DNA of 64,000 nt, taken from an uncultured Methanoregulaceae archaeon. GTDB lineage: Archaea; Halobacteriota; Methanomicrobia; Methanomicrobiales; Methanospirillaceae. The stretch is from the NCBI GenBank assembly GCA_963717525.1, contig OY970343.1, forward strand, positions 1,120,001 to 1,184,000, read 5' to 3'. This document shows positions 1,789 to 20,988 of the stretch, in pieces (positions within the stretch are counted from its first letter, which is position 1; each line of letters begins with the position of its first letter). A program made the position numbers and the translations under genes. The notes below the pieces were generated by a model that was not told where the DNA came from, searched no databases, and saw only the letters and a program-made list of their open reading frames with translations.

Positions 1789-1894
1789 GGTTCTGTTACG
1801 TTGTCGGGGCTTCGTCGAGAAAACCCGGGAATATATGAATTTTCACGATGTAAAATTTGTATAAATAATCAAAGTCCCGAGAAGCATCAGGACC
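1789..1894. mobile_element. IS6-end-like palindromic element E1 (MITE-like, degenerate right end)
   Basis: GGTTCTGTTACGTTGTCGGG ... CCCGAGAAGCATCAGGACC. Confidence 0.55.
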
Positions 1895-1924
1895 GGAAAA
1901 AGAATGGAAATTCGGAGGAATGTA

Positions 1925-2479
1925 TTAACTGGAAAAATTCATTTTTTCATAACCGACGAGAGTCAGTTTTTCATTGATTATTTCCTCTTTGAATGGTTTG
2001 TACCCACGCCGGGTATAGAAAGCATTGTTCCTTTTACTTTCCCGACCGGTGAATAATTCAAATCTCTTAACGAGGGGAAAACTTTTTTCAATGCTCGTTA
2101 GAAGTAATGAACCAATCCCACGGTTCTGGTAATCTGGGTGAACTATTAATTTTTTTATTAAGCAGGATCCCTCATGTACTTCCGCTCGAACCGAACCGAC
2201 AATCTGTTTATCGATTTCAGCTTTGAGAAAGTGAGCATGCCGGAATTCATCATGGACTTCAGTAATATCCTGTTTTAACGGAGGAATTGAGTAATCACCG
2301 ATTAGTGCAGCTTCGCTCAGGAATGCAATCTTCTGAAGTTCAAGGATGGATTTGAGGTCGTCGGATACTGCGACAGATATGCAAATATCTTGCACGGTGT
2401 GGATTTTGCTCATGAGGGAACCTGAGGTGAAATTATTTCTTATGTTATCCTGCCATTCATTGATGAAACTATCTGCCAT
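1925..2479 (-). CDS. GNAT family N-acetyltransferase (true start possibly 2413)
   Basis: Acetyl-CoA motif LIVHPDYQNRGIGSLLL; N..FY...GY. Confidence 0.9.
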   Translation of the reverse strand: MADSFINEWQDNIRNNFTSGSLMSKIHTVQDICISVAVSDDLKSILELQKIAFLSEAALIGDYSIPPLKQDITEVHDEFRHAHFLKAEIDKQIVGSVRAEVHEGSCLIKKLIVHPDYQNRGIGSLLLTSIEKSFPLVKRFELFTGRESKRNNAFYTRRGYKPFKEEIINEKLTLVGYEKMNFSS

Positions 2480-2779
2480 GATTTTCTGTTTTTGTAAATT
2501 AAACGAAAACTAGATTTTAGGACGAGAACTATTCGAAATGAATTGGACGACGATCCTTGCATCAGATTTATTCTTATCATTTTACGCGAGGGAGAGTACG
2601 TGTTTTTTACCGACTCTGTTTCAATCGCCATATCCATAATTGCCTTTAATCAACCTGAGGATTAACTCTACTTGGGACGAATAGCAGAGATAAAACCGTA
2701 ATACACATGAATTCGAGTTTTCCCGAAAACTATACGTTATCAAAATATATTATATTTATAATGTACTGGTGGACGTATT

Positions 2780-5345
2780 ATGGTAGAAAAAATTGAAGAT
2801 GGGTCTTTTTCTGAGGAAAATTCAAAATTGAAGCTATTTATTGCATATTCGCATAAAGACAATACCCTTGAAAAAACATTTATTGAAGATTTTAAAACGC
2901 ATATCGCTCCTTTTAAAAACAATTGTTTAGTTGAAGAATGGTACGATCATGAATTATTACCTGGTGATGAATTAGAGAGAATAAATTCCAATTTAGAAAA
3001 TTCGGATATCATTTGTTTATTTCTCTCAGCATATTTTCTGGATTCTCGTGCATGTATGAATGAAAAAAGAAAGGCAATGGAATTTAGAAAAAAGAAGGGC
3101 GTTCAAGTCATGCCAATTATTTTGTCACCATGTGGATGGAAAGAAGATCCTGATATAATCAAATTAAAATCAATGCCAACCGATGGGAAACCAGTCTCAT
3201 CATTTATTGATAAAAATGAAGCTTGGCAGGACGTCTGTGAAGGATTAAAAAAATTGATTGAGCGAGAGACGAGGATAAAGAATCTGACGATAACTGGACA
3301 ATTTAATAAATTTCTATATGATGCAGATTTATTTACAAAAAACCACTCTACTAAAGAAACCGTTTCTTTAAATGACATTTATATTGATACAGAACTTCAG
3401 AAAATTGATAGTTTCAAAAAAATTTCAACTATAATTAATTCTCATGAACTTCTAGATAATCTCTTGTCCGAGAAAAAAATTATTATAGCCGGTGAAAATC
3501 AATCTGGAAAAACAACTCTTTGTAAAAGATTATTTTGCGATTTACGCACTCTAAATTTAATTCCGGTATATGTCTCAGCAGAAAAAATTTCACATCCTGG
3601 TAAGATAGATAATTTTATTGAAAAATCTCTTCATGAACAATATAACAATTTTAACGAGAGTGAACTCAATCGGGAGAAAATAGTTCCAATTATCGATGAC
3701 TTCCATTATGTGGAAGACAAAGAAAAACACATCACGAATTTATTAAAATATTCCTTATGCGTTATCATCGTCGATGAAATTTTCAATATAAATATCAAAG
3801 ATGAAACACTCATCTATTCCTTTACAACTTTCAGAATTAAAGAACTAAAACCGTCAATAAGATATGAGTTGGTAAAAAAATGGGTTGGTTTATCCGATAA
3901 AGGTTTTAGTTACCAAGGTATTGATAATAATGTTGAACTAATAAATAACACTCTAGGAAGAAATATTGGCAAGGGCTTAATACCTGCTTATCCCTTCTTT
4001 ATTTTGTCCACTCTTTTCACCTATGAAACTTTCTTACCGCTTAATCAGGATATTACTTCGCAAGGCCATTGTTATCAAGCGTTCATCTATTATTATTTAG
4101 GAACAAAAAGAGGTGTGAAATTTGATGCAATGGATGTATATTTGAATTTTTTAAGTGAAGTTGCATCTTACATGCATCTAACGAAAAAAAATGAATTGAA
4201 TCCTTATGACTTTTCCAATTTTATGAAAAATTATTCTTCAAAATATAATCTCCCGATTTCACAGGATATTCTTCTTGATAATTTATTCGAAATCTTCTCC
4301 AAAAACAGTTTTAATAATTACAAATTCAAATACCAATGTTTTTATTATTATTTTGTCGCCAAAGCGTTTTCTGATCACGCAGAAGAACCAAAAGAGTGGG
4401 AAAGAATACTAGATATTCTACATAATCTTCAAATTGACGAGAATGCCTATATTACAGTTTTCCTAATTCATCATTCCAAAAAAATCGGAATTTTTGATGA
4501 GATCGAAAGAATTTCATCATCGCTGTTTAGCAATTATCGTCCTGCGACCTTAGATAAAGATGAACTCGGATTTTTCGATGAACAGTCCCACAATATCGTT
4601 AAAGCCGTATTACCTCCGACGAATCATACCCCCGAAATGGAAAGAAATCGAAGATTAAAACTAGAAGATCAAATGGAACAGTCCAGCGATTCCGAAATAG
4701 AACAAGTCAAAGGAAATGGTGCAGCAATCAATGATTTTAGGAAGGCAATAAAAACAGTTGAGGTAATGGGATGCATTATCCGAAACCGTGCAGGTTCTTT
4801 AGAGCGAGATAAGCTGCAAAATATTTTTTTGGACGGTATGAATGTTCATCTTCGATTACTTTCCTCATTTATTAATATAATAAAAGGAGATAATGAGCAA
4901 AAAGAAATTGTTGAATATATCTCAAAAAGATTAAGTCACTTAGATGAGGGGAAGAACCCAAATGAAAAATTAACAGAAGAGAAAAAAAAGAAGTATGCAT
5001 ATAATATTTTTTGGAATGCCAACTTCTTTGTGATTTATGGGATTCTTTATAAAATTGTTCATTCACTTGGTTCTGATAAATTAATTGAAATTTCTAATCA
5101 AATTTGTGAAAATATTGATAATCCTTCATCTATTTTAGTAAAGCATGGAATTCTAATGGGATATGAAAAAAATTTGCAAATTGATGAACTAAATAAACGG
5201 ATTAATGAAAATGATTTTTCAAAGATTCCTAAGAAAGTCGCAGAAATGATTGTAGTAGATTACAGACTCGGTAAATCAGATTACTTATCGTGATAAACAA
5301 CGAATCGAAAATACTTTAAACATATCCAGACATCGATTAAAATAA
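2780..5345 (+). CDS. TIR domain + STAND P-loop NTPase protein, probable antiviral; probable frameshift near 5265
   Basis: TIR: LFIAYSHKD, WYD, LFLSAYFLDSRACMNE; Walker A GENQSGKT; Walker B-like IIDDFH; AT-rich; track ORF ends 5293 but another frame continues NQITYRDKQRIENTLNISRHRLK*. Confidence 0.8.
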
Positions 5346-5411
5346 AAAATTAAAATTACTTTTCCGTCACTTGTTAAAAGATATGTTCGTTTAATTTGCA
5401 TAAAAGAAAAA

Positions 5412-5506
5412 AATTCTGTAGAAAAAAAGTTGTCGTGGCTTTTAGTCCTAGGCAAGTATTGATTACGAAGAGGTCATTTCCGGTTAAGTTCTCGTTAACC
5501 AGAGCT
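5412..5506. mobile_element. IS6-end-like element E2 (degenerate)
   Basis: AATTCTGTAG..GTTGTCG left; TTAAGTTCTCGTTAACCAGAGC right, like the ends of E3/E5/E10. Confidence 0.45.
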
Positions 5507-5514
5507 CATTCAAA

Positions 5515-6477
5515 TCATAATCGTTGAGATCCCTCTATCACATGAACAACAAAGTAAGCCGTATCCCATCCGTTTTCTGCCAGCGTTCGGTTCTGCCGGG
5601 TTACCGATACCATGAAACCATTTATATCACCATACACGCCATTCACCGTCGATATTCCTATTATATTGGGGGACGTATTCACAAAAATCGACCATGTGTT
5701 CACTCCGCAGGAACCCGCTTGAACTTTGGCATCGCTTCCATAAGGATATCCACAGCATCCAAACTGGATGGTCCCCATTTTTCCACAGGGCATCATACAC
5801 ATCGACTCTAAAGAGAGACTGATGTTCTCTCCCGGGGGTATGTTAGTCGTTCCATTGATAAAGAAATCGCCGGTATAACTTTGCACCTCATTCAGGGAAA
5901 TATTTTGATCCGGGAGGGAATCAATCTGAATCCAGGTATTGTTTGTTACGGTTGTAAGATCCTTCGTGTCCTGAACGAGCAGGAGATCAAAACAATCTGT
6001 CCCTGTCGAATATCTGAGGCACACATGGTCATAAGGACTGTCGCCATCCCCATACGGCAAGGTACTGAGATAATTTTCCCAATCCAGCCCTGTCTGGTTT
6101 CCACTGATGGCAACTAAGAACGTTCCGTTTGCATTGACTGGAACTGGCATGGAAGAACCACTTGGGCCCGGCTCCAGTTCAGAATATACAGAAACCTCTA
6201 CTGAAAGATTGGCATTATCGGGAATCGTTCCTTCATAGGTGAATGGGTCACCCTGAATGACACGATATTCCCTGCGTTCGGAGGCCGAGCAAGAAGTCCG
6301 AGCGGGTGACGGTACTGTCGATGTCGTAGTGATTAAAGGTGGGGGTACTGGCGTAGTAACAACCTGTAACGCGTTTGCAGTCGCGTTTTTCATACCCATG
6401 GATGAGATGCAGCCCGATACAAACAAAAATACTGCGAGAATAAGGAAACTCGCATAAAATGTTTGGCGCAAGTGCAT
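5515..6477 (-). CDS. Secreted lipoprotein with S-layer-like Ig repeat
   Basis: Lipobox VSGC, Thr/Pro linker, WIQID...GDFFINGTTNIP motif. Confidence 0.7.
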   Translation of the reverse strand: MHLRQTFYASFLILAVFLFVSGCISSMGMKNATANALQVVTTPVPPPLITTTSTVPSPARTSCSASERREYRVIQGDPFTYEGTIPDNANLSVEVSVYSELEPGPSGSSMPVPVNANGTFLVAISGNQTGLDWENYLSTLPYGDGDSPYDHVCLRYSTGTDCFDLLLVQDTKDLTTVTNNTWIQIDSLPDQNISLNEVQSYTGDFFINGTTNIPPGENISLSLESMCMMPCGKMGTIQFGCCGYPYGSDAKVQAGSCGVNTWSIFVNTSPNIIGISTVNGVYGDINGFMVSVTRQNRTLAENGWDTAYFVVHVIEGSQRL

Positions 6478-6539
6478 AATTTCACCTGGTATATATGAAT
6501 AGTCATTTCTCCCGGTTCTAATAAACTGATTGAATTTTT

Positions 6540-6603
6540 GGCTCTGTAGAATCCTTCACCGAGTTAACAGAGCCTCTTTAAGTCTCGTTAACGCACCAGA
6601 ACC
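6540..6603. mobile_element. IS6-end-like element E3 (35-bp mini palindrome plus an extra end)
   Basis: GGCTCTGT..ACAGAGCC (6540-6574) followed by TTAAGTCTCGTTAACGCACCAGAACC. Confidence 0.6.
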
Positions 6604-6654
6604 TTTGAGAGATAGAAATAAAGATTACCTCGGATATAAACAAAAGTGAATGAT

Positions 6655-7509
6655 ATGAAGTCGAAATTAATATTTTTTGCTTGTTTCGTCCTATTTCTTA
6701 CAGCGATAATAATTGTCCAGTCAGTGAATGCCGATACGATAACCCCCGTTACAACGCCTTATATATCGATCGATCCCATCGGAAACCATACAACTGGCGA
6801 TTCATTCTTTATTAATGGGACAACGAATCTGGCGGCTATCAATGAGTCTCTTGAACTTACAATATTCAATCCTAACCCTGGGGGATATGGATCCTCTTAT
6901 ACGTCTAATGTATCTGTACAACCCGGAGAAAATGGTGTAAATCTTTGGTCTGAGTATATTTCAGCATCTCGATGGACGACTTCCACACGGAGTGGCACCA
7001 GCATTTCTGATTATAATATGCCCGGTCAATATACCGTGCTTGTTCATTCCCCGGATACTATTGCAACAATTTTTTTCTCCATGTTGCCATCAGAAAGCAG
7101 AATCCTTACAAGTTACACGCCACCGGTTGCATCTTTCATAATAACGAATTCCTCCGGAACGGCACCACTGGCAGTCCAATTTACGGATACTTCCGCAAAC
7201 TCCCCGACCTCGTGGCTCTGGTCGTTCGGTGACGGCAGAACATCGAGGTCACAGAACCCCTCACACATCTATACAAATGCCGGGACCTACACGGTAATGC
7301 TTACGGTAACAAATGGGGCAGGCAGCAATACAACCCCCGGGTCCGGCATAATTACGGCGAGCGGAATATCTGCAACAACCACAACGGTATCCCCTGATCA
7401 AGCTCCAATGACCACTCAATCATCTCCGCTTTCTGTGCTGGTATCCATTGCAGCCTTTGTCGGAGTTGTAATCGTTAATGAATGCCTGATAAAAAAGCGA
7501 GGATTATGA
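6655..7509 (+). CDS. Surface protein: S-layer-like Ig domain + PKD domain, C-terminal membrane anchor
   Basis: Signal peptide; PYISIDPIGNHTTGDSFFINGTTNL; PKD motif WLWSFGDG..S..QNPSHIY..AGTYTV; TM + basic tail. Confidence 0.85.
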   Translation: MKSKLIFFACFVLFLTAIIIVQSVNADTITPVTTPYISIDPIGNHTTGDSFFINGTTNLAAINESLELTIFNPNPGGYGSSYTSNVSVQPGENGVNLWSEYISASRWTTSTRSGTSISDYNMPGQYTVLVHSPDTIATIFFSMLPSESRILTSYTPPVASFIITNSSGTAPLAVQFTDTSANSPTSWLWSFGDGRTSRSQNPSHIYTNAGTYTVMLTVTNGAGSNTTPGSGIITASGISATTTTVSPDQAPMTTQSSPLSVLVSIAAFVGVVIVNECLIKKRGL

Positions 7510-8156
7510 TGCCATCAAAAATCAATTCCCTTATTCTTGGTATAATATTGGCCTCGGTAATTATTCCGCTGGTAAGTGCAGAAAATGGAAATGTAACCCT
7601 TGATACAACTCCGTTTATCACAATTGATCCCATCGGGAACCATGCGTTTGACGATGGGTTCTTTATTAACGGAACAACTAACCTGGGGCATTGGGAGAAT
7701 ACGCTTGACCTGGATATCGAATGGTGGGCGTTTAACCCGGCAGGCCGCTGGTCATCCATGTATATTACAAACGCATCCATCCAGTCCGTTGGGAATGGGA
7801 CGGGCATCTGGTCAGCGAAGATCCTACCCGCCCAATGGGAGATGTACACAGATGTGGAGCACCAGACAACCGTATTCCGGGACGTGTACCCGGGTGAATA
7901 CGTAGCGTATGTTTCTTCATCAAGTTCTCTCGGACCTACAGTAATTGCCCAACAGACTTTTTTTATTGTGCCAGATGAAAACAACCGCACTTCCGACACC
8001 TCGTCCACGATACAACCCTCACCTGAAACTGAAGTAGCGAATCCAAGTTTATCACCACTCCGGCAGGACACTCCGCTTCCCGTGACGGTACCGTTTGTTG
8101 CTCTTTTTGCCGTCATAGTCTGCCGGGTCGTGTTGAATGCCAGAAAAAGGAAGTGA
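7482..8156 (+). CDS. Surface protein with S-layer-like Ig domain and C-terminal anchor
   Basis: PFITIDPIGNH..DDGFFINGTTNL; TPLP-TM-RKRK tail. Confidence 0.75.
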   Translation: MPDKKARIMMPSKINSLILGIILASVIIPLVSAENGNVTLDTTPFITIDPIGNHAFDDGFFINGTTNLGHWENTLDLDIEWWAFNPAGRWSSMYITNASIQSVGNGTGIWSAKILPAQWEMYTDVEHQTTVFRDVYPGEYVAYVSSSSSLGPTVIAQQTFFIVPDENNRTSDTSSTIQPSPETEVANPSLSPLRQDTPLPVTVPFVALFAVIVCRVVLNARKRK

Positions 8157-8204
8157 TTTCATGAAGTGCGAAGTAAATCCTCATCTGAAGTCCGAGATCT
8201 GAAC

Positions 8205-8718
8205 ATGATTAACAAAAAATCAGGATTGGTGATTGTCGGAGCGGTCATTCTCATGATGATTCTCGTCAGCCGGCTGTCTCGGGTCCGACACGCAAAATCC
8301 AAAAGCGGGTGCTGGGTCAATACAATGTTCGGAATCGGTGGGATCGGGACAAAATATGATTATTAACGAAACGCAGAGCAACGCCACAATCTGCGCCAAC
8401 CTGAACAGCTCTCTAACAATAAGGTTGACCGATTACACCAGACTCGGATTGAATTGGGCCATAACCGGGACTCCCGGTCTCAAAATAATTGACGATGGTG
8501 TAACCCTTTATTGGTTTGATCAAAACGGCACACCCATGACTGCTTTAGAGGCGAGTAACTATACCGGACCGGGAATGCAAACTGGTGAAAATGTATGGGA
8601 TGTCACCATGGTAAATACCGGCATACAGACCATGAAGGGCGTCCTCATATTTCCAGGAGCACCAGCCGGCGCCCCGGTTAATGATCGGGTGTTTAACTTG
8701 ACAATTGTTGTCGAATAG
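8205..8718 (+). CDS. Chagasin/I42 protease-inhibitor-like lipoprotein, frameshift near 8270
   Basis: Removing one base restores lipobox VSGC in frame with NETQSNATI..LTIRL..G.NW..GLKII..FNLTIVVE. Confidence 0.6.
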
Positions 8719-8915
8719 ATGTTCCCTCATTTTCGTAGTTAGTGAAAACCTTTCTTTTTCGAGTTTTGGTGACGGCTTGCCGGATCGTTAAGTGAAATGA
8801 ATTTTTGCTCCCCAACAGGAAGCACAATCGAACTTTTTCTTATAATAGCCAAAATAATTTTGCATTGTGCCAAAAACTTTATACATTATGCCAAGTATAT
8901 AGTGCATGAGGCCCT

Positions 8916-9773
8916 ATGAAACACAAGACCCTAGTAATGGGCAGCATTGCTGCTGTCGCTATTATTGCCGTCGTTATATGCGTCGGCATGGTTACCGGAT
9001 ATTCGGTATTCAAACAACTCAACACCGTTAAACCGGTAAGCAATGTGAATACTGGAGTCCAGTCAGCCGCTATGGAAAGTACCCCAGTTAATACGCCACC
9101 GTACATCACCATAGATCCCGTTACCGACGAAACAACCGGTGATCTTCTGATTGTTACCGGTTCGACGAATCTTCCGGAAGGAACGGCCCTCATGGTCCAG
9201 ATAAGCGGCACCGGAGGAAATACCGAGGTGAACCAAGGAAGCAACGGGATAAACCGGTATTCGATGCCAATCGACACATCCATCTTAAAACCGGGCACAC
9301 TTAATATCACGGTGTCCCAGATGATCGGTGATCCGGCAAAAGGAAATTATGGGCCGGGGACAGTCAAAGCGACTGCCTCTTTCATGTTGGAAGGTACCTA
9401 CCTTGCAACTGATGCACCAGTCCAGCCGATAATCACCTCAAGTGATTACATCCGATTAAATGCAATCGGCAATCGGTCTGTCGGAGACCAGTTCCTTATT
9501 ACTGGAACTACCAGTCTACCGGTAGGTACCAACATTATGTGGCAGATCATGCCGGATACCGGAACATCCCCCACAGGTGTCAACATGACCGCAAGTGGCG
9601 ACGGTGGAAATAACATGGTAACGAAAGGCAACGGCACCGCAAACCAGGTATCGTTTGCTGCTGACATGAGCCGACAGGTTCCGGGGAAGTGGGTTGTTCT
9701 TGTTGGGGTAGCAAAAGAAGGTGCATTTGCGATGGAAAACCCCATGGCAACCACCTACTTTACTCTGCAATAG
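8916..9773 (+). CDS. Membrane-anchored surface protein, two S-layer-like Ig repeats
   Basis: N-terminal TM; YITIDPV..GD..IVTGSTNLP and IRLNAIG..GDQFLITGTTSLP. Confidence 0.75.
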   Translation: MKHKTLVMGSIAAVAIIAVVICVGMVTGYSVFKQLNTVKPVSNVNTGVQSAAMESTPVNTPPYITIDPVTDETTGDLLIVTGSTNLPEGTALMVQISGTGGNTEVNQGSNGINRYSMPIDTSILKPGTLNITVSQMIGDPAKGNYGPGTVKATASFMLEGTYLATDAPVQPIITSSDYIRLNAIGNRSVGDQFLITGTTSLPVGTNIMWQIMPDTGTSPTGVNMTASGDGGNNMVTKGNGTANQVSFAADMSRQVPGKWVVLVGVAKEGAFAMENPMATTYFTLQ

Positions 9774-9886
9774 GAGGAGGCATGTTAAGGGAACACACCC
9801 ATCCATTTTTTTCGAAAACCGAAATGCTGGATCAAAGATAAAAAATTTTCACTTATTGCACAAAATACGTTACATGTGGCGCGCCT

Positions 9887-10726: not shown

Positions 10727-10731
10727 TTGTC

Positions 10732-11311
10732 ATGAAACGCCTTACCTATCTTACCTGCACTCTCATCACGGCCTGTATGGTTGCCGCAATGGTCGGGTGG
10801 TCGATGGCAGACCGGTAATTTTCTCGTCACGGTCATCGCCATCCCGCTCGGGATTATCGTTGTCCTCGCCTGCCGTACTCAGGTCGATATCGTTATCGCA
10901 GACGAGCGGGAGAAGAGGATCCGGAGTAAAGCTGCTCTCCGGACACTCGAAGTTGTCATCATCGGAGGGGCGATTGCCGCGATTATTCTGTATTCCTTTG
11001 TGGTGAGTATCCCGCTAACCCCGATAATTACCGGAAAAATATTCATCAATGCCGATGGGACACAATCCATGACAATAGCCGAGTATACGCCGGGGAGTGT
11101 GCCGGGCCCGCAAACCCTTGTCCGACAGACCACCATACAAAACCTGAATGCCATGAATGAGTCCGAGGCAATAACGTACTGTTCCTATGTCCGCGAGGGG
11201 TTTCAGGAAAACGAAAACCGGGGGCTTGTCGGCATGACTATTGGAAGCGTTCTGGTGGTTCTTCTGGCAACATTTGGAGCATTTTATCTCTATTACGATA
11301 AAAAATATTGA
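10732..11311 (+). CDS. DUF2178-like membrane protein, frameshift near 10808
   Basis: MKRLTYLTC start in another frame; DEREKRIRSKAALRTL motif; precedes an XRE regulator. Confidence 0.65.
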
Positions 11312-12595: not shown

Positions 12596-12643
12596 GTCTG
12601 CATCCTGTTAAATTATATCCTGTGAATCGTATAAATCTACGGA

Positions 12644-12734
12644 AGTTCTGTTGCGTTAACGGGATTTAAAGAAATAATATCGTTGTAAATCATCAATATT
12701 CACTATTTAACCACTCCGATAACGCATCCGAACC
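12644..12734. mobile_element. IS6-end-like palindromic element E5 (91 bp)
   Basis: AGTTCTGTTGCGTTAACGG ... CCGATAACGCATCCGAACC. Confidence 0.7.
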
Positions 12735-13079
12735 ATAAAAATTATTTATGTTCCTAATTCCTGGAAATTAAGCGAAGTATTACGACTCCAACAATAGCTG
12801 TCATTGGAAACAATCAGAGAAAGAGGAGTGGTAGCGTTGCCGGTTTCATTTCCGGACAATCTGGAACCCGGATGTTTTCAAGGCTCCTTCAGAAATCATC
12901 TCCGTTTAAAATCCCGTTTATTTCCTTTTTTACGAGTAATAGGAGAGAGGAGTCTATTTCGAAGGGAAAAAATACGGTTTCATTTCCTATTTTCTTTTAA
13001 TACAAATAAATGGAAAAAGAGTACAAGAAACAGTATTACCTTCTCTTAATTTTGATTAATGGATTCTGAGCGTGAAAAA

Positions 13080-13247
13080 TTACTTTTCCTTCTTTACACC
13101 CTTAAACGGGGTTCCATTTTCTTTCACGGCCATAAATTGCCCTGTAGTTGTGTCTCTCTTAACATATCGTTCTGTTTTAGGATTGAGAACCTGACTTCGA
13201 TCATCTACCTTTCCTATTCGAAAACCTTTACCGGTATCCTTTGCCAT
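13080..13247 (-). CDS. Small basic 55-aa protein absent from the ORF track
   Basis: Hand translation MAKDTGKGFRIGKVDDRSQVLNPKTERYVKRDTTTGQFMAVKENGTPFKGVKKEK*; GAGGAG RBS upstream. Confidence 0.75.
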   Translation of the reverse strand: MAKDTGKGFRIGKVDDRSQVLNPKTERYVKRDTTTGQFMAVKENGTPFKGVKKEK

Positions 13248-13363
13248 TTCACTTTCTCCTCAGCAACAACTCTTAACGAATTATAAGAAAATTGTTGTCA
13301 AAATCATATAACCAATTAATAAAATAAAAATATTCCCATGAATTTTAATAAAATGACAGGATT

Positions 13364-13455
13364 GGTTCTGGTACGTTGTAGTTACTCTTAAAATACTGCT
13401 CAGATACCACAACGACAAAGCCACTTTCAATGAGGCTCTTTAACGTACCAGAACC
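13364..13455. mobile_element. IS6-end-like palindromic element E6 (92 bp)
   Basis: Perfect 14-bp TIR GGTTCTGGTACGTT / AACGTACCAGAACC. Confidence 0.8.
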
Positions 13456-13619
13456 TTTCTGATACCTTGATAAAACCCCGTCTTCTTTATTATTCAAGGA
13501 GATTTTTTGCATTAGTCAGAGAATGTTGCAGTTTTCTTCGTTTTATAGCAATAAAAAGAATGACCTTGTTTGATTCTAATACGTTGCGCGTTCCTAGAAA
13601 TTAATAGCCCTGATTTATA

Positions 13620-13949
13620 TCAGTCTGATTTTTCATATTGTGGAGTTGCAACTTTTTTAGGTCTGCCGCGTTTGCGTTTTGGGCCATCGGCGGTTTTTGT
13701 CTCATTGTTTTTGACTTTGCGAGGTCTACCCCGGGGTCTCTTCTCTTTTTGTTCGATTTTCTCAGCAGGTTTTACCTTGCGCGGCCTATCCCTTTTTCGG
13801 GTCTCACCGTCGGTGGCGGATTTTAATGATTTCTCATCAGAAATTACTTTGATTTTACCATCGGAGACGAACTTTAACAAAACCTTCTCAATTTCGTTGT
13901 TAATATCACGATTCAATTTAGAAAAATCGCGTGGGGTTATTTGATACAT
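13620..13949 (-). CDS. Small basic AT-hook protein
   Basis: RKRDRPRK, KRPRGRPRK, RKRGRPKK. Confidence 0.65.
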   Translation of the reverse strand: MYQITPRDFSKLNRDINNEIEKVLLKFVSDGKIKVISDEKSLKSATDGETRKRDRPRKVKPAEKIEQKEKRPRGRPRKVKNNETKTADGPKRKRGRPKKVATPQYEKSD

Positions 13950-14053
13950 ACTCTGAAAAAGGCTATATTAATATAAATTATTTTGTAAATTCAGAGTGCT
14001 ACAATTAATTTCGTTTTGCTGACAGGATCTCCCCAATTATCGCTGATTATAAT

Positions 14054-14411
14054 TTATTTCCCTCTGGTCACATTGGCTACCGCACTGGAGATCCCGGCCT
14101 CAACTTGACTGAAGTTTCCCTCAGTGACATTGGCTATCGCACCAGAGATTGCGGTCTGTGCTTGGCTAATGTTCTCTCCGGTTACATTTGCAACTGCACC
14201 GGAGATTGCGGCCTGTACATAGCTGAAGTTCTCCGCCACGAGTGCATACTCCTGCGTTGTATTATGAGAAACATACGAACTTGTGGCCGATTCAACCGCT
14301 CCTACACCCATTTGGAAAACGGCAGATGGCCCGAAGAGGTACTATCGCAATAACAACTATCAAAACCACTGCAACAGCGATCCAGACGATCAATTTCACG
14401 AATATGCCCAT
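14054..14411 (-). CDS. Membrane-anchored protein with three 19-aa repeats, frameshift near 14340
   Basis: MGIFVKLIVWIAVAVVLIVVIA then YLFGPSAVFQMG; repeats (E/G)N(F/I)SxxxxxISxA(V/I)ANVT. Confidence 0.6.
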
Positions 14412-14637
14412 TTTTTCATCCACCCATCTCCCGGCACCGGGTCTTTTGTAGACGGTTCAGAAACCCTCACAGATTGATTCTGTGGGGTTTTCTCTATGCA
14501 GATAGATAAAAGTATTGAGCGAATAAAAGAGGGCTTATTTTTGACTATCGTCTGGGTTTCGCCAGCTGGTGGCAGTGGATCACTTTCACACTGCTCATGG
14601 CCGGATCTTTATCTCCCTCATTGAGTGATCCGGTGCT

Positions 14638-15115
14638 ATGGAGAAAATCCCCGTCCGCAAATACCAGGTAGTCGAGGAAGCAGAGATAAACCTCGTCCTC
14701 CAGTGTAAGGATAGTCATGAATTTTATGAGAGATACCTCAAGGTGTTCCCTGATACCAAAAAAGGTCTCGACAGTATCTCCAAGATCTGGAAACGCAGGA
14801 GTGAATTTGCAAAGAAATGGCCACTGACCACACCTGCAGTGGAAACCGGGACAAAATCCGCACAAGATATCGCGGCTTTAATCGCCGAACAGACAAAGAT
14901 CATGGGCGAGATCTCCGCACTCGTCAAGGAGAGCCTCGAAGTCAACCGGGCAGATCCTTGCAACACTTACACAGCAGAATCAGATCTTAACTGGACATTC
15001 CGAACATACCGCTAGGGAACCGCCAAAAAAATCTTCGCATTACGCCCCTGTGGTACCTCTTCCCATGCAGAAAATAGCGTCTGAGGTACAGACTCCGATC
15101 CTGGTCGGTTCGTAA
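14638..15115 (+). CDS. Hypothetical protein with coiled-coil C-terminus, frameshift near 14949
   Basis: MEKIPVRKYQVVEEAE...; removing one G continues NRQILATLTQQNQ...PILVGS*. Confidence 0.6.
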
Positions 15116-15129
15116 GTGCCTTCCCATTG

Positions 15130-15330
15130 TTAGATCTTTTTTATCTCTGTCACTTTCAGGATATCGGTTCGGGTCACAATCCCGACGATCCGGCCATCTT
15201 GAACTATCGGAATCCTCCCAATGTTTCGGGCCGACATGATCCTGAAGGCGTCCATGACCGGTGCCGATGGCGGGAGGGTGATCGGGTCGTGGGTCATGAT
15301 ATCGCGGACCTGCATCGTCTCGGCATCTTG
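15130..15330 (-). pseudogene. 3' fragment of a CBS-domain gene
   Basis: VRDIMTHDPITL..DAFRIM..NIGRIPIVQDGRIVGIVTRTDIL; homology stops at an abrupt GC drop. Confidence 0.7.
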
Positions 15331-15753
15331 TTGGGTATTCCAATAATGTTGAACAATATTGCTCCAAAAGATGTTCAAAATATTCTAACGATTTATATTA
15401 CAGTCGATATTGCAATAATTGCTTCATCTTTTTCAATACTTACTATAAACCCTAAGGATATTGTCAACTCACTAAAAAAGAACCAATTGGTAAATATTGA
15501 AAGATTTAAAAACTTCATTGTTACTTCAGTGTTCATCCTATTATTATCAATATTTGATTATTTGCTTACTAATTTGAAAATGGGTAATCCATTGACTGTT
15601 ACAATTTTTGGAATTACAGTTTATGCATTTAACACAATTTTTTGGGTTATAACATTTTTTATGTTTATTTTTGTAACTAATTTAATGTTTTATACGTGGG
15701 TAATATTAGAGGAAATTTTTAAAGAAATATCGGTTCTGTCAAGTCTGCGGTAG
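15330..15753 (+). CDS. AT-rich multi-pass membrane protein, probably 5'-truncated
   Basis: Hydrophobic helices; stop codon lies inside element E7. Confidence 0.5.
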
Positions 15754-15811
15754 ATCGTCACTTTTCTTTGGAGTATCGAATTTCAGAAACAGCCAACAAC
15801 TTGACAGAACC
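15732..15811. mobile_element. IS6-end-like palindromic element E7 (80 bp)
   Basis: Perfect 13-bp TIR GGTTCTGTCAAGT / ACTTGACAGAACC; interior similar to E8. Confidence 0.8.
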
Positions 15812-15843
15812 ATAAAAACCACTTCTGTTTATGAGGAAAACGA

Positions 15844-16767
15844 TTAGCTCCTGTTCCTTCGGAAAAGAAAGATCACACCACACACAGCAAGCGCTCCGAG
15901 AACCGGCATTGCATCTAGTCTGGCATTAGGTGTAGGCGTAGCCGAAGGTATCTCTTGGTTCGTTGTCGTATAGGTAAATGATGCAACCGGTGGAGTTTGG
16001 GGAACAGCCTGCGGTGGGGATATCTCCGTGGTCGTAGCAGAAACAGGAATATTGCTTGTTGTAATAAGCCCGACCGCGCTCGTGTTGCTGCCAGCCGGGT
16101 TGGTTGCCGTGAGCGTTACCGTGTAGGTACCAGCACTCGTGTAGGTGTGGAGGGGGTTCTGGGATGTCGATGTACTCCCGTCGCCAAACGTCCAAAGCCA
16201 CGATGTCGGGGTGTTTTCAGACTCGTCTACAAACTGGACGGTCAGCGGTACCATATCGATTGGTTCGGTTGTCCTGTTTCCGTAGTAGTCAATTTCCGCA
16301 ACCGGAACGGTGTAAACCGAAGGGACTCCGGGAAAGATGAGAACTAATTGTTCCGGTGCAGTAGGGCCCGAGGGAGCGTACACATTTACGACATATTCAC
16401 CGGGTACTGCATCAGGAGTGGGGATCCGGTGCGGTTCTATCCCGAACGTTTCCCAGAGAGATGTTGTAGCATTACAGGACAAGGTATTGATCCCGTTTTC
16501 CCCGGGCTGGATGGATACGTTGTTTGACATATATCCTGACCATCCGCCACCTGGGTTAAAACTGGAACTGTAGATTTCAATACTCAGAGATTCGTTGGCC
16601 GGCAGGTTTGTCGTCCCGTTAATGAAGAATACTTCATCGATTGTGTGGTTTCCGACGGGATCGATTGTGATATAAGGGGTTATATTTTCAGCGCTTGCTA
16701 TCGGGACAATTGTCACTGTTAAAAAGAAAAGTGCAAAAAATGTGAGAAACACTATTTTTGATTTCAT
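15844..16767 (-). CDS. Surface protein: S-layer-like Ig + PKD domain, C-terminal anchor; paralog of 6655-7509
   Basis: MKSKIVF signal; PYITIDPVGNH..FFINGTTNLP; WLWTFGDG..QNPLHTY; TM-RRNRS tail. Confidence 0.85.
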   Translation of the reverse strand: MKSKIVFLTFFALFFLTVTIVPIASAENITPYITIDPVGNHTIDEVFFINGTTNLPANESLSIEIYSSSFNPGGGWSGYMSNNVSIQPGENGINTLSCNATTSLWETFGIEPHRIPTPDAVPGEYVVNVYAPSGPTAPEQLVLIFPGVPSVYTVPVAEIDYYGNRTTEPIDMVPLTVQFVDESENTPTSWLWTFGDGSTSTSQNPLHTYTSAGTYTVTLTATNPAGSNTSAVGLITTSNIPVSATTTEISPPQAVPQTPPVASFTYTTTNQEIPSATPTPNARLDAMPVLGALAVCGVIFLFRRNRS

Positions 16768-16835
16768 GTCCTTCACTTTTGTTTTATATTTGAGATTATC
16801 TTCATTTCTCCTTCTCAAATAATGTTATTTAAAAT

Positions 16836-16914
16836 GATTCTATTAAGTTGTCGGCAGGTTGTCACTTTTCTTCGGAGTGTTAACTCTCAGAACTGCCGAC
16901 AACTTAACAGAACC
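16836..16914. mobile_element. IS6-end-like palindromic element E8 (79 bp)
   Basis: GATTCTATTAAGTTGTCGGCAG / CTGCCGACAACTTAACAGAACC (20/22 complementary). Confidence 0.8.
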
Positions 16915-16935
16915 CCGAGGAGTTATCAGCACCAA

Positions 16936-17468
16936 TCAGCCGCAATAGTGGCAATTTACTAAGCAGGAGAACTGAGCTTTTACTCCAAGCTCGCGCATCA
17001 GAGCAAATGTGTCTAAATAGGAAACTCCGACCCCGTTACAAGCATTCGGGATCGGAATTCTTCTTTTAATGTCGGAATTGTACCTTTCATCGGTTACCAC
17101 TGTAAATCCTTTAGCTAGAGCAAAAGCAATTAACCAACCATCAGCGTTGTTAGCGAATTCAGCTTTCGCGCCAGGGATATACTGAGGCTGAACTGAGCCC
17201 AACCCATAACAGTTGCGTAAGCGTCAATCACATCCTGTTGGTTCGTCGAATCGAACCATTGATGAAAATTTCCACCGATCCAAGTCGTGAGATCGTCATT
17301 ACCTCTGTCAATTTCATCCTTGACTTTGTCAATACTCCTAACCAGTCCACCCCTCGCATGCCTGATTAATGCATCCCAAAAGCCTGGGGCTATATCAAAG
17401 GCGTAATACCTCTTTGCTGATTCGATGAACACATTTGCATCGAGAATGAAAATCCTTGCAGGGCTCAT
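16936..17468 (-). CDS. DUF4411-like PIN domain protein, frameshift near 17190
   Basis: FILDANVFIE..RYYAFDIAPGFW; ADGWLIAFA..TVVTDE..IPIPNAC. Confidence 0.8.
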
Positions 17469-18670
17469 TCAGATCCGCCCATACCGAGTCTCTTTGCATA
17501 ATTTTCAAAAGTCTCCCCATAGAGCCCGGTCAGGTTATAGGCATCTCGGTACAGTAGATTTCCTTCTCTTACCGCACTTATAACTGCCATGGCGAAACGA
17601 TGCCCAATACGCAAATTCTGGTTGGCATAGAAGTCACCGCCACCTACCTGCCTGCCAGCATTATCGTGAATTTCACGCTCGTATTCTTGATAAAACCCGG
17701 CAAACTCATCATCCTTAATAAGTCCGAGGTTGAGTGTCCTGTAAGCAGCAACGAGCTTGCTTACTTTGAAATGGAGAGCGACAGACTCAAAACGCTCTGC
17801 ATCATCCTTCACCGAAGGCCAGTAGTCTCGTAGTTGTTTTGCCGGGATGAGAAATTCCGCAGCGATACGATTACTTGCCCTTTCTATTTCGTCATTGGCC
17901 GGCCGGAGTTCCTTCAAATCAAAGACAGCGCTTTTTCCAAACCATATATGGGCCAGTTCATGCGCCAAGGTAAACATCTGCGCCGCCTTTCCATCGGCAT
18001 TATTGATAAAAACGAGCGGAGCATATTCGTCTATGAGGACAAAACCTCGAAATTCAGCAACATCCAGTTTGCGATGCGGATTATTTCCAACAATACCATT
18101 TACGACCAGAAGGATGCCAGCCTCCTCTATTTTAGTCCTTAGCTCCTGCAGCGCCTTGGTCCAGTTGGGTTGTTCAGCCGCCCATCTTTCTGAAAGTCCC
18201 AGAGTACGTCTGATTTCGCTTGCGATGTGTTCCGGTTTATCACCGTGATGTACCGAACGGACAAAACTCAGTGGTTCTTCACCTTGTTCCATCAGGTATT
18301 CACGCATCCAGCCTTGACGTTTCTCCATCATTTGGATAGTCTCAATTAAGTCAGCACTGGGTTGTTGTGAGTGATTACCCAAGGTTCGGAAATGGGGGAT
18401 CGGTAATTGCTCGGACGGAGGTTCTGATAGGAAGAAAAAACCCAATGGTGTCGAAGTTGCTTTTGCAAGTTTCTCGACCTCTGGTAATGTCGGGCGGCTC
18501 TCCCCGTTAAGCCACTTTGATATTTTCGGCAGGCTATGTTGAAGGTCATCTTGCCCCCGTCCTGACCGGGCCATCGCCCAACGAAGGATAGATCCACTTA
18601 TTGGGACATGGGGCTTTGCTGAATGACCGTGGTCTTTCCAAATACTTTCGGTTTTCCCATTATCCGACAT
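17465..18670 (-). CDS. HTH + ImmA/IrrE (COG2856) Zn metallopeptidase
   Basis: N-terminal XRE-like HTH; FTLAHELAH (HExxH); E..SNRIAAEFLIP. Confidence 0.9.
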   Translation of the reverse strand: MSDNGKTESIWKDHGHSAKPHVPISGSILRWAMARSGRGQDDLQHSLPKISKWLNGESRPTLPEVEKLAKATSTPLGFFFLSEPPSEQLPIPHFRTLGNHSQQPSADLIETIQMMEKRQGWMREYLMEQGEEPLSFVRSVHHGDKPEHIASEIRRTLGLSERWAAEQPNWTKALQELRTKIEEAGILLVVNGIVGNNPHRKLDVAEFRGFVLIDEYAPLVFINNADGKAAQMFTLAHELAHIWFGKSAVFDLKELRPANDEIERASNRIAAEFLIPAKQLRDYWPSVKDDAERFESVALHFKVSKLVAAYRTLNLGLIKDDEFAGFYQEYEREIHDNAGRQVGGGDFYANQNLRIGHRFAMAVISAVREGNLLYRDAYNLTGLYGETFENYAKRLGMGGSE

Positions 18671-18789
18671 GTTACGAATCCTAAATTGTGTCTATGCAGT
18701 TATCTATTATTAATTCGACCTTCATATCTTAAGAAGTCTAGTCGGTACCATTTCGTTTGCTTTGCAAATTCCTCCGAAGTGATGTATCC

Positions 18790-18954
18790 GCAACTATAGA
18801 TGGAACAGGACGATACGGCGATCTCCCGGTTACAGACAAAGCAAAGGAGATTCTCGCGAAATACGAAACGGTCATCCAGCCGACTCCCGAAGTGCTGGAG
18901 CTCATGGAGAAAGTGTACAGGCCATATGTTGCTATTCTGCATACCACGTGCTGA
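18790..18954 (+). pseudogene. 3' fragment of an Mth938-like domain gene
   Basis: GTGRYGDLPV..A.EIL...PTPE...AILHTTC; no credible start. Confidence 0.5.
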
Positions 18955-19019
18955 AAATACGGTTGCGGCTATGTATTCTCCTGCCTAGACAATTTCGATC
19001 CCCCTCATTTTTAGAGAAC

Positions 19020-19095
19020 GGCACTGTTGCATCTACGGTTGGTGACCCCTTTTTCACCTCGTTAAATTATTTAATCAACCACTAACGCCTCAACA
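19020..19095. mobile_element. IS6-end-like element E9
   Basis: Left end GGCACTGTTGCATCTACGGTTGG (first 12 nt equal the IS26 TIR start); right end decayed. Confidence 0.6.
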
Positions 19096-19176
19096 CTTGG
19101 TGTTTTTTATTGCAAATAAAAGGAAAAGTGTCCAAGATGATTTTTTAATTTAATTAGAATTAAAATTGTCCTAGCT

Positions 19177-19248
19177 GGTTCGGCTGCGTCAGAGAGACTG
19201 GGTTACGACGATATTATTTTTGTTAAGTCCCGTTACCGCAACAGCACC
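19177..19248. mobile_element. IS6-end-like element E10 (inverted relative of E5)
   Basis: GGTTCGGCTGCGT ... TTAAGTCCCGTTACCGCAACAGCACC. Confidence 0.65.
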
Positions 19249-19262
19249 GATTCACCCTATCT

Positions 19263-19964
19263 TCAAGCTGTTTTGCGAAGGAGTTCTTCGATAAGTTCGA
19301 GCTGGATATTCTGGATTTCCAGGAGGTTATGTCCCTGGTTCGTCATGAGATAATCAATTTTCTTATGGAGCCGGTGAATTTCGGAGTCCGTATGGATACT
19401 TACCTGGAAATCACGTTCTGCATGGAGACGGTCTCTTACCTCCTGGCGGTTCTGGCTCATGATAATGATGGGAGCCTGAACCGCAGCAATTATTGAGAGG
19501 ACGAGGTTAAGCAAGATATAGGGATAGGGATCGTAGGGTCTGGATACTAAAATAAAGGAGTTCAGGAATACCCAAAGGAAAAGCAGGCCGGTAAAAACCC
19601 CGAGAAAAATCCAGCTCCCGGCAAAATCTGCGAATGTGTCAGAAAGGCGTTCGCCAAAGGTCATCCCCTTTTCATATTCGACATTTTCATTTTTCGGGAG
19701 ATGATCCTCCACCTTCATGTCATTATTGACGGTTCCTTGGAGCAAGGCATACGCATTTTTTTCCTTCTCTACTTCATCCCGAACATACTGTATCCTGAAC
19801 CGGTTAAGATCAGTCTGACAGATGTATCCTTCAGATGACCACGCCGGATATTCCTTTGTGATAATATCAACAATCGATGCTGGAACCAGTTCTGCGGGAA
19901 TAAGGTCATTTTTCGTCTTTTGTCCCCTGCAAATCTGGCAGGGAAATGTCTCCTGATCCACCAT
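19263..19964 (-). CDS. DUF1003 membrane protein
   Basis: TFGERLSD..ADFAGSW; DPYPYILLNLVLS..AAVQAPIIIMSQNRQ. Confidence 0.9.
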   Translation of the reverse strand: MVDQETFPCQICRGQKTKNDLIPAELVPASIVDIITKEYPAWSSEGYICQTDLNRFRIQYVRDEVEKEKNAYALLQGTVNNDMKVEDHLPKNENVEYEKGMTFGERLSDTFADFAGSWIFLGVFTGLLFLWVFLNSFILVSRPYDPYPYILLNLVLSIIAAVQAPIIIMSQNRQEVRDRLHAERDFQVSIHTDSEIHRLHKKIDYLMTNQGHNLLEIQNIQLELIEELLRKTA

Positions 19965-20022
19965 TTTATTTTTCCTCTTATCCTTTCAATGGATCTTCGG
20001 GTTCTAATTACTTATCTGGATT

Positions 20023-20118
20023 AATTCTGTTGCGTTGTCGCGCTCTGCTACCTTGTTATGGGATCGTCAACTTTCCCTCTCATGAAAATATACGATCCCT
20101 CAACAAGTTAACAGAACC
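20023..20118. mobile_element. IS6-end-like element E11
   Basis: AATTCTGTTGCGTTGTCG ... CAACAAGTTAACAGAACC. Confidence 0.65.
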
Positions 20119-20147
20119 TCATTTAATAATAATTAACCGAAAATTCA

Positions 20148-20225
20148 GGTTCTGTTATGTTTGCGGGTGATATGTAAATTTATCTGAGGTAGAAAACCAC
20201 TACCAACCGCAGACACAACAGAACC
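20148..20225. mobile_element. IS6-end-like palindromic element E12 (78 bp)
   Basis: GGTTCTGTTATGTTTGCGGGTG / CAACCGCAGACACAACAGAACC. Confidence 0.8.
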
Positions 20226-20277
20226 CCCATTTTCTTGGACAGAAATGACAGGAAAAACAATTTCACTCGTAATAAGG

Positions 20278-20667
20278 TTACACGGTAGAGGATCCCAGGA
20301 TGTGAGGTAGAAGCACGGTTGTGTTATTGAGGACAACAATGGTATACATGATAATTAATGATGCGTAAAGCACCATGCCCGATCCCTTTACCCGGGCCTC
20401 TGCATTGAGAGCGACGGGGATGACACAGATGATAATTCCTATTTTAAGGAGGATATGCAGAAACGGCATGGTGACAACACCAGCCATCATCGGGTTGAGC
20501 TCGGTCCCCCCCATATTGAGAATGAGCTGAGTGGTAAAGATATCAAGAAGGAAAAGATCCGCAAGGATCAGTGAGAGAAGGATGATCCAAACGAAGACCC
20601 CTGTACCGGGACCGACGTTTTTCGGGAAGAGAAGATTTACCGACCGGGCGGTTCCTTCTAAAGCCAT
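20278..20667 (-). CDS. DUF5658-like small membrane protein
   Basis: LDIFTT..IL..GG.ELNPMM; 3-4 TM; VV.NN. Confidence 0.7.
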   Translation of the reverse strand: MALEGTARSVNLLFPKNVGPGTGVFVWIILLSLILADLFLLDIFTTQLILNMGGTELNPMMAGVVTMPFLHILLKIGIIICVIPVALNAEARVKGSGMVLYASLIIMYTIVVLNNTTVLLPHILGSSTV

Positions 20668-20908
20668 ATTCTCCAGTAATCGTTTTTTATTTAAATAATT
20701 TTCTCAAACGATATAATCGATATTAACAGTTTTTACAGGAAATACTTACCATTTTAAGCGTATTTTGTGGAATTTTAGGACAGTTGTTTTGATTGAAATT
20801 ATTGATTTATTAAATAAAATACATTAATTTTCTTGCTTTATCTCCCAGATATCTCCCACATTTTAAGATTTTTATCAGATTATTTGACCGAAGATAATTG
20901 GTTTAAAA

Positions 20909-20988
20909 GATGCTGTTGCATCTACGGTTGGTAGGGGGGATTTTCGCTTCGCAAGAATTCGCATATCAACCGCAGACGCAACAGAAGC
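20909..20988. mobile_element. IS6-end-like palindromic element E13 (80 bp)
   Basis: GATGCTGTTGCATCTACGGTTG / CAACCGCAGACGCAACAGAAGC. Confidence 0.75.

Follow-up and report, generated by a model that had tools for sequence, protein, structure and literature searches.

Palindromic elements of a cassette-like gene array in a Methanoregulaceae archaeon are probably miniature members of an IS6-like, cargo-carrying transposon family

What are the short palindromes that separate the genes at one end of a 64,000-nucleotide stretch (the window) of the genome of an uncultured Methanoregulaceae archaeon (GenBank assembly GCA_963717525.1, contig OY970343.1, positions 1,120,001 to 1,184,000)? Their regular placement in the first 21 kb gives this region the look of a cassette array, and an earlier note, made from the sequence alone, had taken them for the joints of an integron-like platform of gene capture. 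The analysis described here leads to a different answer. The palindromes are very probably miniature transposable elements with inverted repeats (MITEs) of an IS6-like transposon family, the full-length members of which carry cargo genes. Positions up to 64,000 are those of the window; larger ones, and those prefixed with C1, are positions in the genome.

The elements were detected by reading the spacers, by pairing left- and right-type motifs, with an nhmmer profile and with a covariance model built from 22 copies. For the end motif GGYTCTGKYR, the window gives 13 occurrences, every one of them within 1789–20225; the expected number is 1.53, and no more than 6 turned up in any of 100 shuffles. 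The inventory, confined to the interval from 1.8 to 21 kb, comprises 11 palindromic elements of 64–92 nt together with two half-elements. It differs in two places from the approximately 13 elements counted in the earlier note: E2 (2122–2197) was dropped as a chance match because it lies inside the open reading frame (ORF) of a GNAT gene and is recovered by neither nhmmer nor the covariance model at E ≤ 1, and an element at 19020–19097 is missing from the earlier coordinates. In the window past position 20988, neither the motif nor nhmmer nor the covariance model reveals an element, and there is no match to PF13610 or PF00589 anywhere in the window, which bears out the remarks that the elements cease at 21 kb and that neither a transposase nor an integrase accompanies them. 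The elements indeed sit at gene boundaries, 7–52 nt past stops and 18–69 nt ahead of starts (241 nt for the gene at 20278–20667). They start and end as GGTTCTGT...ACAGAACC, with a fuller form GGTTCTGT(Y)(R)(M)GT..CGG plus its mirror image, and their likeness to IS6 ends, perceived in the earlier note, agrees with the published IS6/IS26 end consensus GGTTCTG TTGCAAA (Harmer and Hall; PMC6807381).

The elements are not confined to the array. The merged nhmmer and covariance-model list contains ~55 copies in the 2.29-Mb genome, distributed over about ten regions near genome positions 17, 53, 96, 137–152, 484–527, 793–798, 1017–1019, 1104–1141, 1267–1306, 1648 and 1692–1733 kb; the region at 1104–1141 kb takes in the window and the preceding 16 kb. 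The copies sort into four stem-sequence variants, A to D, and have discrete boundaries. In at least 8 pairs of distant copies, the similarity starts and stops 0–5 nt from the GG/CC tips. The copies at 1277162 and 798079, for example, are 89% identical across 81 nt with offsets of 0/0; element E5 is 91% identical to the copy at C1:510654–510732, the limits of similarity being the tips with offsets of 2/0; and E8 is 86% identical across the element to the copy at 1290022, with overhangs past the tips of 2 and 5 nt. No ORF fits within the 64–92 nt of an element, and a crude longest-ORF tiling, which extends over 85% of the genome, leaves 46 of the 55 copies outside. The flanks of the copies have a median GC content of 0.47 compared with 0.556 for the genome, and 51% of the copies are located in the 7.4% of the genome that is below 47% GC.

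The inverted arms of the elements covary. Over the 22-bp stem in 22 copies, paired cells amount to 84.4% versus 73.0% upon shuffling, double changes occur in 13 of the 22 pairs, and the covariation of 0.355, compared with 0.170, was reached in none of 500 shuffles. All eight elements tested form long DNA hairpins, with z-scores of -2.0 to -8.1. Covarying stems and long hairpins, many of them a few nucleotides past stops, with termini that are conserved though the flanks carry no duplication, are also consistent with sites kept by the host, namely terminators, operators or REP-type small structured RNAs. Nonetheless, this explanation is highly improbable. The copies show no preference for gene 3' ends, because they fall into tandem, convergent and divergent spacers (24, 12 and 10) in the proportions shown by the whole set of spacers at least 100 nt long (592, 256 and 285, respectively). 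Rfam returned no family at E ≤ 0.1 over window positions 1–24000. Moreover, the distribution of the elements is patchy. Covariance-model matches were obtained in 9 of 24 genomes of the same genus and in none of 16 genomes from other genera of the order, and a wider draw yielded MITEs in 48 of 100 genus genomes, leaving 52 that lack them. The element at C1:1647961 is missing beside the orthologous gene in 11 other species, whose flanks are too diverged to show an exact empty site. Finally, transposons flanked by target duplications have these same ends.

The genome holds two genes with the PF13610 (IS240/IS6-type DDE) domain, encoding 394 (C1:2074187–2075371) and 398 amino acids; the domain scores, for which the cut-off is 27 bits, are 55.4 and 50.4 bits. 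Both proteins, ~390 residues long, comprise an N-terminal SWIM zinc finger, also matched by its domain model, a zinc ribbon, an HTH and the IS240/IS6-type catalytic domain. The best NCBIfam model for this transposase is IS6, with a score of 113.6 bits that falls below the cut-off of 125, followed by IS1 with 72.5 bits, and databases name it only 'DDE-type integrase/transposase/recombinase' or 'transposase-like protein'. A short divergent ORF (MPKNPR.. or MSKNPR..) is located just 5' of the transposase start at locus L001 (about positions 517–852 of the locus) and at L002 and is kept in both copies of the own genome. No matching ends were found within 0.85–1.5 kb of the transposase genes, a result that proved misleading. 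When a position matrix of the outer 16 nt of 26 MITEs was used as the end matrix, single left- and right-type ends were seen to flank the transposase gene in relatives, 0.9–2.9 kb upstream and 0.3–1.7 kb downstream. The nine resulting units are 2.6–5.1 kb in length with inverted ends of 22–40 nt, and four of them are bordered by perfect 8-bp duplications. The own genome contains two such transposons, a 6325-bp unit at C1:2070743–2077067 with the 8-bp duplication CCCTTAGT and a 3963-bp unit at C1:1834962–1838924 with the 8-bp duplication TCTTAAAA; the nearer of the two lies 0.7 Mb from the window and the other 0.95 Mb. An IS6-like DDE transposase with matching ends, as the earlier note recommended looking for, is thus present twice, in both cases between perfect duplications.

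The same organisation extends to other archaea. In a scan of species-representative genomes, tblastn confirmed 585 stretches as coding for a relative of the transposase; by record title these belong to Methanoregula, Methanolinea, relatives of Methanothrix, Methanoperedens, Bathyarchaeia, Nitrososphaeria, Thermoplasmatota and others. Among the 77 archaeal loci retained, 44 show the gene enclosed by a GGYTCTG end pair, and 31 of these 44 have a perfect 8-bp duplication; the units with end pairs span 2.6–8.3 kb. The transposase length ranges across units from 346 to 425 residues, and the units contain 2–7 ORFs. Cargo varies from unit to unit and includes an HNH nuclease with an N6/N4 methylase, GmrSD with a HEPN protein, a Bpu10I-type nuclease, a dCTP-deaminase-like protein, a ClpP-like protease and many ORFs without a family. 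The parent ends begin with GGTTCTG(T/G/A), and many continue with TTGC; they have the GG tip and the G at position 7 and conform to the IS6 consensus GGTTCTGTTGCAAA. The ends of the window elements are equal to transposon ends at 16–22 of 24 nt, and the variants of the transposon ends correspond to the MITE variants. At three Methanoperedens loci (L157, L161 and L183), the flanks match only with a one-base shift, sharing seven common letters plus one extra; it may be that in this lineage the cut, or else the real tip, is one base off. At C1:1838924–1838933 (L118), exactly the 8-bp duplicated target separates the right end of the 3963-bp transposon from a solo left end of another variant that faces it, which means that this transposon inserted directly against an existing end.

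The transposase and the MITEs occur together. The transposase is encoded in 15 of 80 genus genomes; MITEs are present in all 15 of these and in 24 of the 65 transposase-free genomes (Fisher p = 3.8e-6, uncorrected for kinship; such p-values overstate the association because related genomes are not independent). The median number of strand matches is 19 with the transposase and 4 without it. Together with the two cognate transposons of the own genome, this distribution favors the proposal of the earlier note that the palindromes are non-autonomous, IS6-ended elements served by a transposase in trans: being non-coding and having the parent ends, the MITEs would move, or would have moved in the past, only through a transposase supplied from elsewhere. 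In two genomes filed as different species, G015 (L023) and G044 (L099), a common region of 3.1 kb that includes two MITEs shows 98.5% identity, rising to 100% over the last 1.7 kb and around the MITEs. These sequences are too close for a comparison of rates, and their identity suggests a recent exchange of the island.

Several observations do not sit easily with MITEs that merely inserted and then decayed. An 8-bp duplication reaching 7 of 8 matches was found at none of 37 MITEs of the own genome in any of 49 registers, the flank matches averaging 2.2 of 8 with a maximum of 4, which extends to the whole set the lack of duplications previously noticed at E4, E6, E7 and E12. The same is seen for 26 copies at other loci, two of them from the own genome, where none exceeds 4 of 8 and the mean is again 2.2. 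By contrast, the parent transposons often have perfect duplications. Plain insertion and then decay alone is unconvincing because copies of a subfamily are still 75–92% alike; decay would need constrained elements beside unconstrained flanks. No two MITE copies are identical, so there is no sign of current activity, and genome G020, a single contig that is 99% complete, has no transposase yet contains about six MITEs (12 strand matches). Furthermore, duplicated segments of 82–97% identity stop at element tips, and the homology is not resumed beyond them. The thiC gene (306–1532) with its flanks, window positions 62–1782 (1721 nt), is 97% identical to C1:121527–123247 and this similarity ends 7 nt before E1; a sensitive blastn search gave no match for the paralogous thiC locus farther along than the unit that starts at E1. 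The segment C1:1707514–1708310 is bounded exactly by two MITEs and is 96% identical to 1107488–1108282, and 1117677–1118718 is 97% identical to 1306142–1305094 up to a solo tip. Segments that end at tips therefore point to rearrangement at the ends and not solely to simple insertion. The copies are also clustered: 39 of 55 have a neighbor within 3 kb, whereas 2000 draws matched for GC content and spacers lead one to expect 20.2 and never give more than 35. The missing duplications, the tip-ended segments, the clustering and the end-to-end insertion are the traces expected of an IS26-like end-targeted or intramolecular reaction, although they do not prove one.

These traces raise the possibility of an active, IS26-type platform in the array, in which a transposase acting in trans would join MITE-bounded, gene-sized units beside resident MITEs by a targeted reaction, conservative or cointegrate-type, that leaves no target duplication, such that single-gene defence, surface and toxin–antitoxin modules are collected and reordered. 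Besides the contrast between MITEs without and parents with duplications, the tip-ended segments (among which the paralogous PKD genes described below may be counted) and the clustering above the matched expectation, this possibility is favored by element pairs only 24–79 nt apart, by the transposon whose 8-bp duplication abuts another solo end, by the changing cargo of the parent transposons and by similar arrays in genomes G069 and G044. It is nevertheless unlikely. IS26-type units sit between identical, directly oriented copies, whereas the elements that flank a gene in the window are mostly of different subfamilies and at most ~75% alike (75% for E8 and E9). Flanks of different copies have no excess of common 8-mers: 5 pairs share at least 7 of 8 positions, within the 1–11 of displaced controls, and thus give no signal. 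Homologous modules of the G044 array are reordered in G041 and G048 with no MITE end nearby, and homologues of the bracketed genes, in the 11 best loci of other species, are without a covariance-model match. Homology that ends near gene ends, and thereby near MITEs, is partly expected because coding sequences are better conserved than spacers.

Twelve metagenome runs from four studies contain at least half of the sampled words of 11400–21300, and contigs from four runs of two other studies match the window with few differences; one of 9578 nt spans 5070–14651 with two differences and another of 3794 nt spans 15677–19470. The array is unchanged in these contigs, in which rare forms would be invisible, so that the comparison of cassette order suggested in the earlier note shows no change across the four runs of the same strain. 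The only joints in the contigs fall on MITE copies, at 11637/16883, 15732/20085 and 20118/20986, with sides of 33–34 nt, and are read as repeat crossings in the assembly graph and not as rearrangements. The contigs of two to four other runs per site also differ from the window by single-base indels at 5266, 8267, 10811, 14338, 16978 and 17191, which are probably assembly errors in the window; several split ORFs of the window may therefore be whole genes. An extra G after 17191, present in contigs of three other runs, would fuse the two DUF4411 ORFs. The island as a whole was found in no genus genome; only gene-sized pieces match, with 67–97% identity, and comparison of the G044 array with five genomes likewise yielded only gene-sized, paralogue-rich matches.

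The resemblance to an integron raises the further question of whether the elements serve as attC-like sites for an archaeal integron, or for a different site-specific recombinase system, whose integrase would lie at the cluster edge. They are imperfect palindromes of 64–92 nt with conserved tips and variable centres, located between single genes without target duplications, and three related tyrosine recombinase genes, at C1:1101224–1102690, 153295–154632 and 1271596–1272546 (L071, L072 and L073), adjoin the three largest clusters. The genome has nine PF00589 matches, and the gene nearest to the window starts ~19 kb before its first base. However, the recombinase family does not follow the elements: of 100 genus genomes, 33 encode it and 18 of these 33 have MITEs, as do 30 of the 67 genomes without the family (p = 0.40). 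It is also missing from the MITE-rich genomes G044, G015 and G020. The NCBIfam model for the archaeal XerA/integron integrase gives these recombinases 44–51 bits against a cut-off of 220, and the tips of the elements are transposon ends that in full-length form are flanked by 8-bp duplications. An integron-type system is thus improbable in the extreme. The three recombinase genes probably mark integrated islands. Two of them are near-identical over 272 residues, one of these two being broken, and the locus of the third also encodes a BREX BrxC/D ATPase and a DEAD helicase. With copies spread over the genome, an array unchanged in four runs, homologues without elements and no recombinase tied to the elements, the integron-like capture platform of the earlier note is not upheld. 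Part of the capture idea survives, because the full-length relatives carry changing cargo and several duplicated segments end at tips.

Under the preferred reading, that of MITEs derived from cargo-carrying transposons, the elements would consist of little beyond the two inverted ends of IS6-like transposons, their four variants matching four lineages of parent ends. Copies would persist only in non-coding DNA and would have piled up in low-GC accessory islands, of which the first 21 kb of the window, variable in content and with many defence genes, is the richest. The look of a cassette array would arise because the island consists of short single genes and short spacers, with one element per spacer. 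Selection may account for the spacing just past stops and ~50–70 nt ahead of starts, as closer insertions would break the promoter.

The first 21 kb of the window have a GC content of 33–51%, compared with 54.5% for the genome. Pfam assigns to this region the accessory genes of a GNAT acetyltransferase, a TIR-STAND NTPase, two PKD proteins, an HTH regulator, a DUF4411/IrrE-HTH pair, a DUF1003 and a DUF5658 protein, alongside several ORFs without a family. The array begins with E1 (1789–1827), a solo left end, hence a half-element, of the subfamily C type. Its end-matrix score of 23.8 is the highest in the genome, and it is equal at 22 of 24 nt to the inverted end of the transposon in L087/L132. 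The second half-element, E3 (about 5470–5505), lies 9 nt past the stop of the gene at 5515–6477 and is degenerate: it equals one half of a C-type MITE at 34 of 50 aligned positions, is interrupted by a 4-nt gap within the tip and scores under the end-matrix threshold. The two C-type halves E1 and E3, which are inverted relative to each other and separated by 3.7 kb, have no target duplication. Between them are the genes of the GNAT acetyltransferase (1925–2479, minus strand) and the TIR-STAND NTPase (2780–5293, plus strand), and the interval 1925–5293 may be the remnant of a cargo unit. The minus-strand ORF at 5515–6477, between E3 and E4, has no Pfam match. E4 (6540–6603) is a composite of a 35-nt mini-palindrome (6540–6574), whose covariance-model match is weak (E = 0.6), and a solo right end (6575–6603); the right-type end at 6574 scores 17.4.

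A plus-strand block (6646–11552) follows that, according to Pfam, encodes a PKD protein, a DUF2178 membrane protein and an HTH_3 regulator together with several uncharacterised ORFs. Positions 8838–11536 are 84% identical to a locus of G069 that has no covariance-model match. The MITE E5 (11560–11637; covariance-model E = 5.9e-13, hairpin z-score -3.7) is located 7 nt past the stop of the HTH gene and 16 nt past the stop of the minus-strand ORF at 11654–12595, which lies between E5 and E6 and has no Pfam match; in G093, a C-type element occupies the place of E5 after the HTH gene. E6 (12644–12734) is a 91-nt MITE of subfamily C (nhmmer E = 6e-6) that resembles the C-type copies at 509280 and 1708305, and E7 (13364–13455) is a 92-nt MITE with an nhmmer E value of 0.02 and a hairpin z-score of -3.6. 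A segment of ~190 nt at 15131–15322, wider at 14580–15322, is found with 76–80% identity in most of the 100 genus genomes; the own genome has further copies of it at C1:1291666–1292407 (91%, 743 nt) and 2156348–2156543, and the overlapping ORFs at this place have no Pfam match.

The MITEs E8 (15732–15811; covariance-model E = 6.9e-14) and E9 (16836–16914; covariance-model E = 1.2e-16, the best in the genome; hairpin z-score -8.1) both belong to subfamily A and enclose the minus-strand gene of a PKD-domain protein (15844–16818; Pfam PKD_4, E = 5.4e-19). This gene is a paralogue of 6646–7509, with the similarity beginning at distances of 1 nt past E4 and 17 nt ahead of E9. Next to E9, a split DUF4411 gene and an IrrE-type peptidase-HTH gene form a Pfam-assigned pair on the minus strand (16936–18670). 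The element at 19020–19097, without a label, is a MITE of subfamily B (nhmmer E = 3.6e-4; covariance-model E = 4.3e-4). E10 (19177–19248) is a decayed MITE 14 nt past the stop of the DUF1003 gene, with an nhmmer match and a right-end score of 12.9. The DUF1003 gene (19263–19964, minus strand; Pfam E = 3.8e-34) lies between E10 and E11; the region 19248–20020 is 86% identical to a locus of G084 that has no MITEs, and an 82% paralogue of the gene at C1:1706584–1707341 adjoins another MITE. E11 (20041–20118) is a subfamily D MITE (covariance-model E = 2.0e-10), its right end being equal at 21 of 24 nt to the inverted end in L184. Separated from it by 29 nt is E12 (20148–20225), a subfamily B MITE with a covariance-model E value of 3.9e-14 and a hairpin z-score of -6.1. 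The DUF5658 gene (20278–20667, minus strand; Pfam E = 1.2e-12) is located between E12 and E13 (20909–20988), the last MITE, of subfamily B with a covariance-model E value of 1.1e-14, whose right end is equal at 22 of 24 nt to the inverted end of the 6.3-kb transposon of the own genome. Just past it, at 21174–23366, a run of plus-strand ORFs contains four 103-nt direct repeats, 73–78% identical to the first and spaced 575–887 nt apart, which look like a repeated-domain gene or gene family.

The parent transposons share with IS6/IS26 elements such as IS26 and IS257 the catalytic domain PF13610, ends that start with GG, carry a G at position 7 and agree with the consensus GGTTCTGTTGCA over as many as 12 nt, and, in the full-length form, 8-bp duplications. 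They differ in the transposase, which with ~390 residues, a SWIM finger and a zinc ribbon stays below the NCBIfam IS6 cut-off, and in their organisation: IS6/IS26 elements are 0.7–0.9 kb with one gene, whereas the parent units of 2.6–8.3 kb carry passengers and do not have that simple arrangement. Most IS6 transposases are 220–250 residues long, and the family generates 8-bp duplications (Varani and co-workers; PMC7986276). Harmer and Hall describe archaeal IS6-type ends as longer, often with GG and G7, and hold that even the short archaeal elements should stand outside the IS6/IS26 family (PMC6807381). The parents resemble transporter insertion sequences and mobile insertion cassettes in that one transposase and unrelated cargo lie between a single pair of inverted ends, and the 3.7 kb from E1 to E3 could be a transposase-less version; unlike these, the parent family is archaeal and IS6-like, with largely defence-type cargo. 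Transporter insertion sequences and mobile insertion cassettes are passenger genes within insertion sequence ends, with or without a transposase.

Varani and co-workers list only two MITEs for the IS6 family, with lengths of 227 and 336 bp (PMC7986276); their ISfinder names, MITEBth2 and MITEHarch3, are given in PMC6807381. Like them, the window elements are non-coding and have IS6-type inverted ends, with the transposase encoded elsewhere. The window MITEs are smaller (64–92 nt, nearly just two ends), with four end variants in one genome, lack target duplications (37 and 26 copies), cluster in islands and have multi-gene parents in place of 0.8-kb insertion sequences. They share with IS26 translocatable units and pseudo-compound transposons the gene-sized segments between elements with IS6-type ends, the tip-exact limits and the small elements without duplication, but the copies on either side of a segment are not identical and do not come from a single subfamily, and no circular or alternative forms were seen in contigs. 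With integron cassette arrays they have in common tip-conserved imperfect palindromes between mostly single, often promoter-poor genes and a variable content; unlike there, no integrase is linked, the tips are transposon ends, and elements also occur singly throughout the genome. A full-text literature search, which did not extend to ISfinder, found no paper on either the MITE or the parent family, and neither is described in the passages on such elements in PMC7986276, PMC6807381, PMC6563490, PMC13343696 and PMC11602168. Those passages of the MITE census in PMC11602168 do not mention Methanoregula; its supplementary lists may include these elements. Passenger-carrying DNA transposons were undetected in archaea in a 2019 survey (PMC6563490).

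A striking pattern in a methanogen island would thus be explained as transposon debris and not as a new recombination system. That the MITEs lack target duplications and their parents have them poses a mechanistic question that is directly testable. Should the IS26-like alternative prove true, the MITEs would be working joints that build and reshuffle defence and surface-gene islands of methanogens, and the same enzyme would also insert full-length transposons with an 8-bp duplication. The analysis also brings to light an IS6-like family with a SWIM–zinc ribbon–DDE transposase, GGTTCTG ends, 8-bp duplications and variable cargo, much of it for restriction or defence. If confirmed, the parent family would be a route for the movement of defence genes within archaeal genomes.

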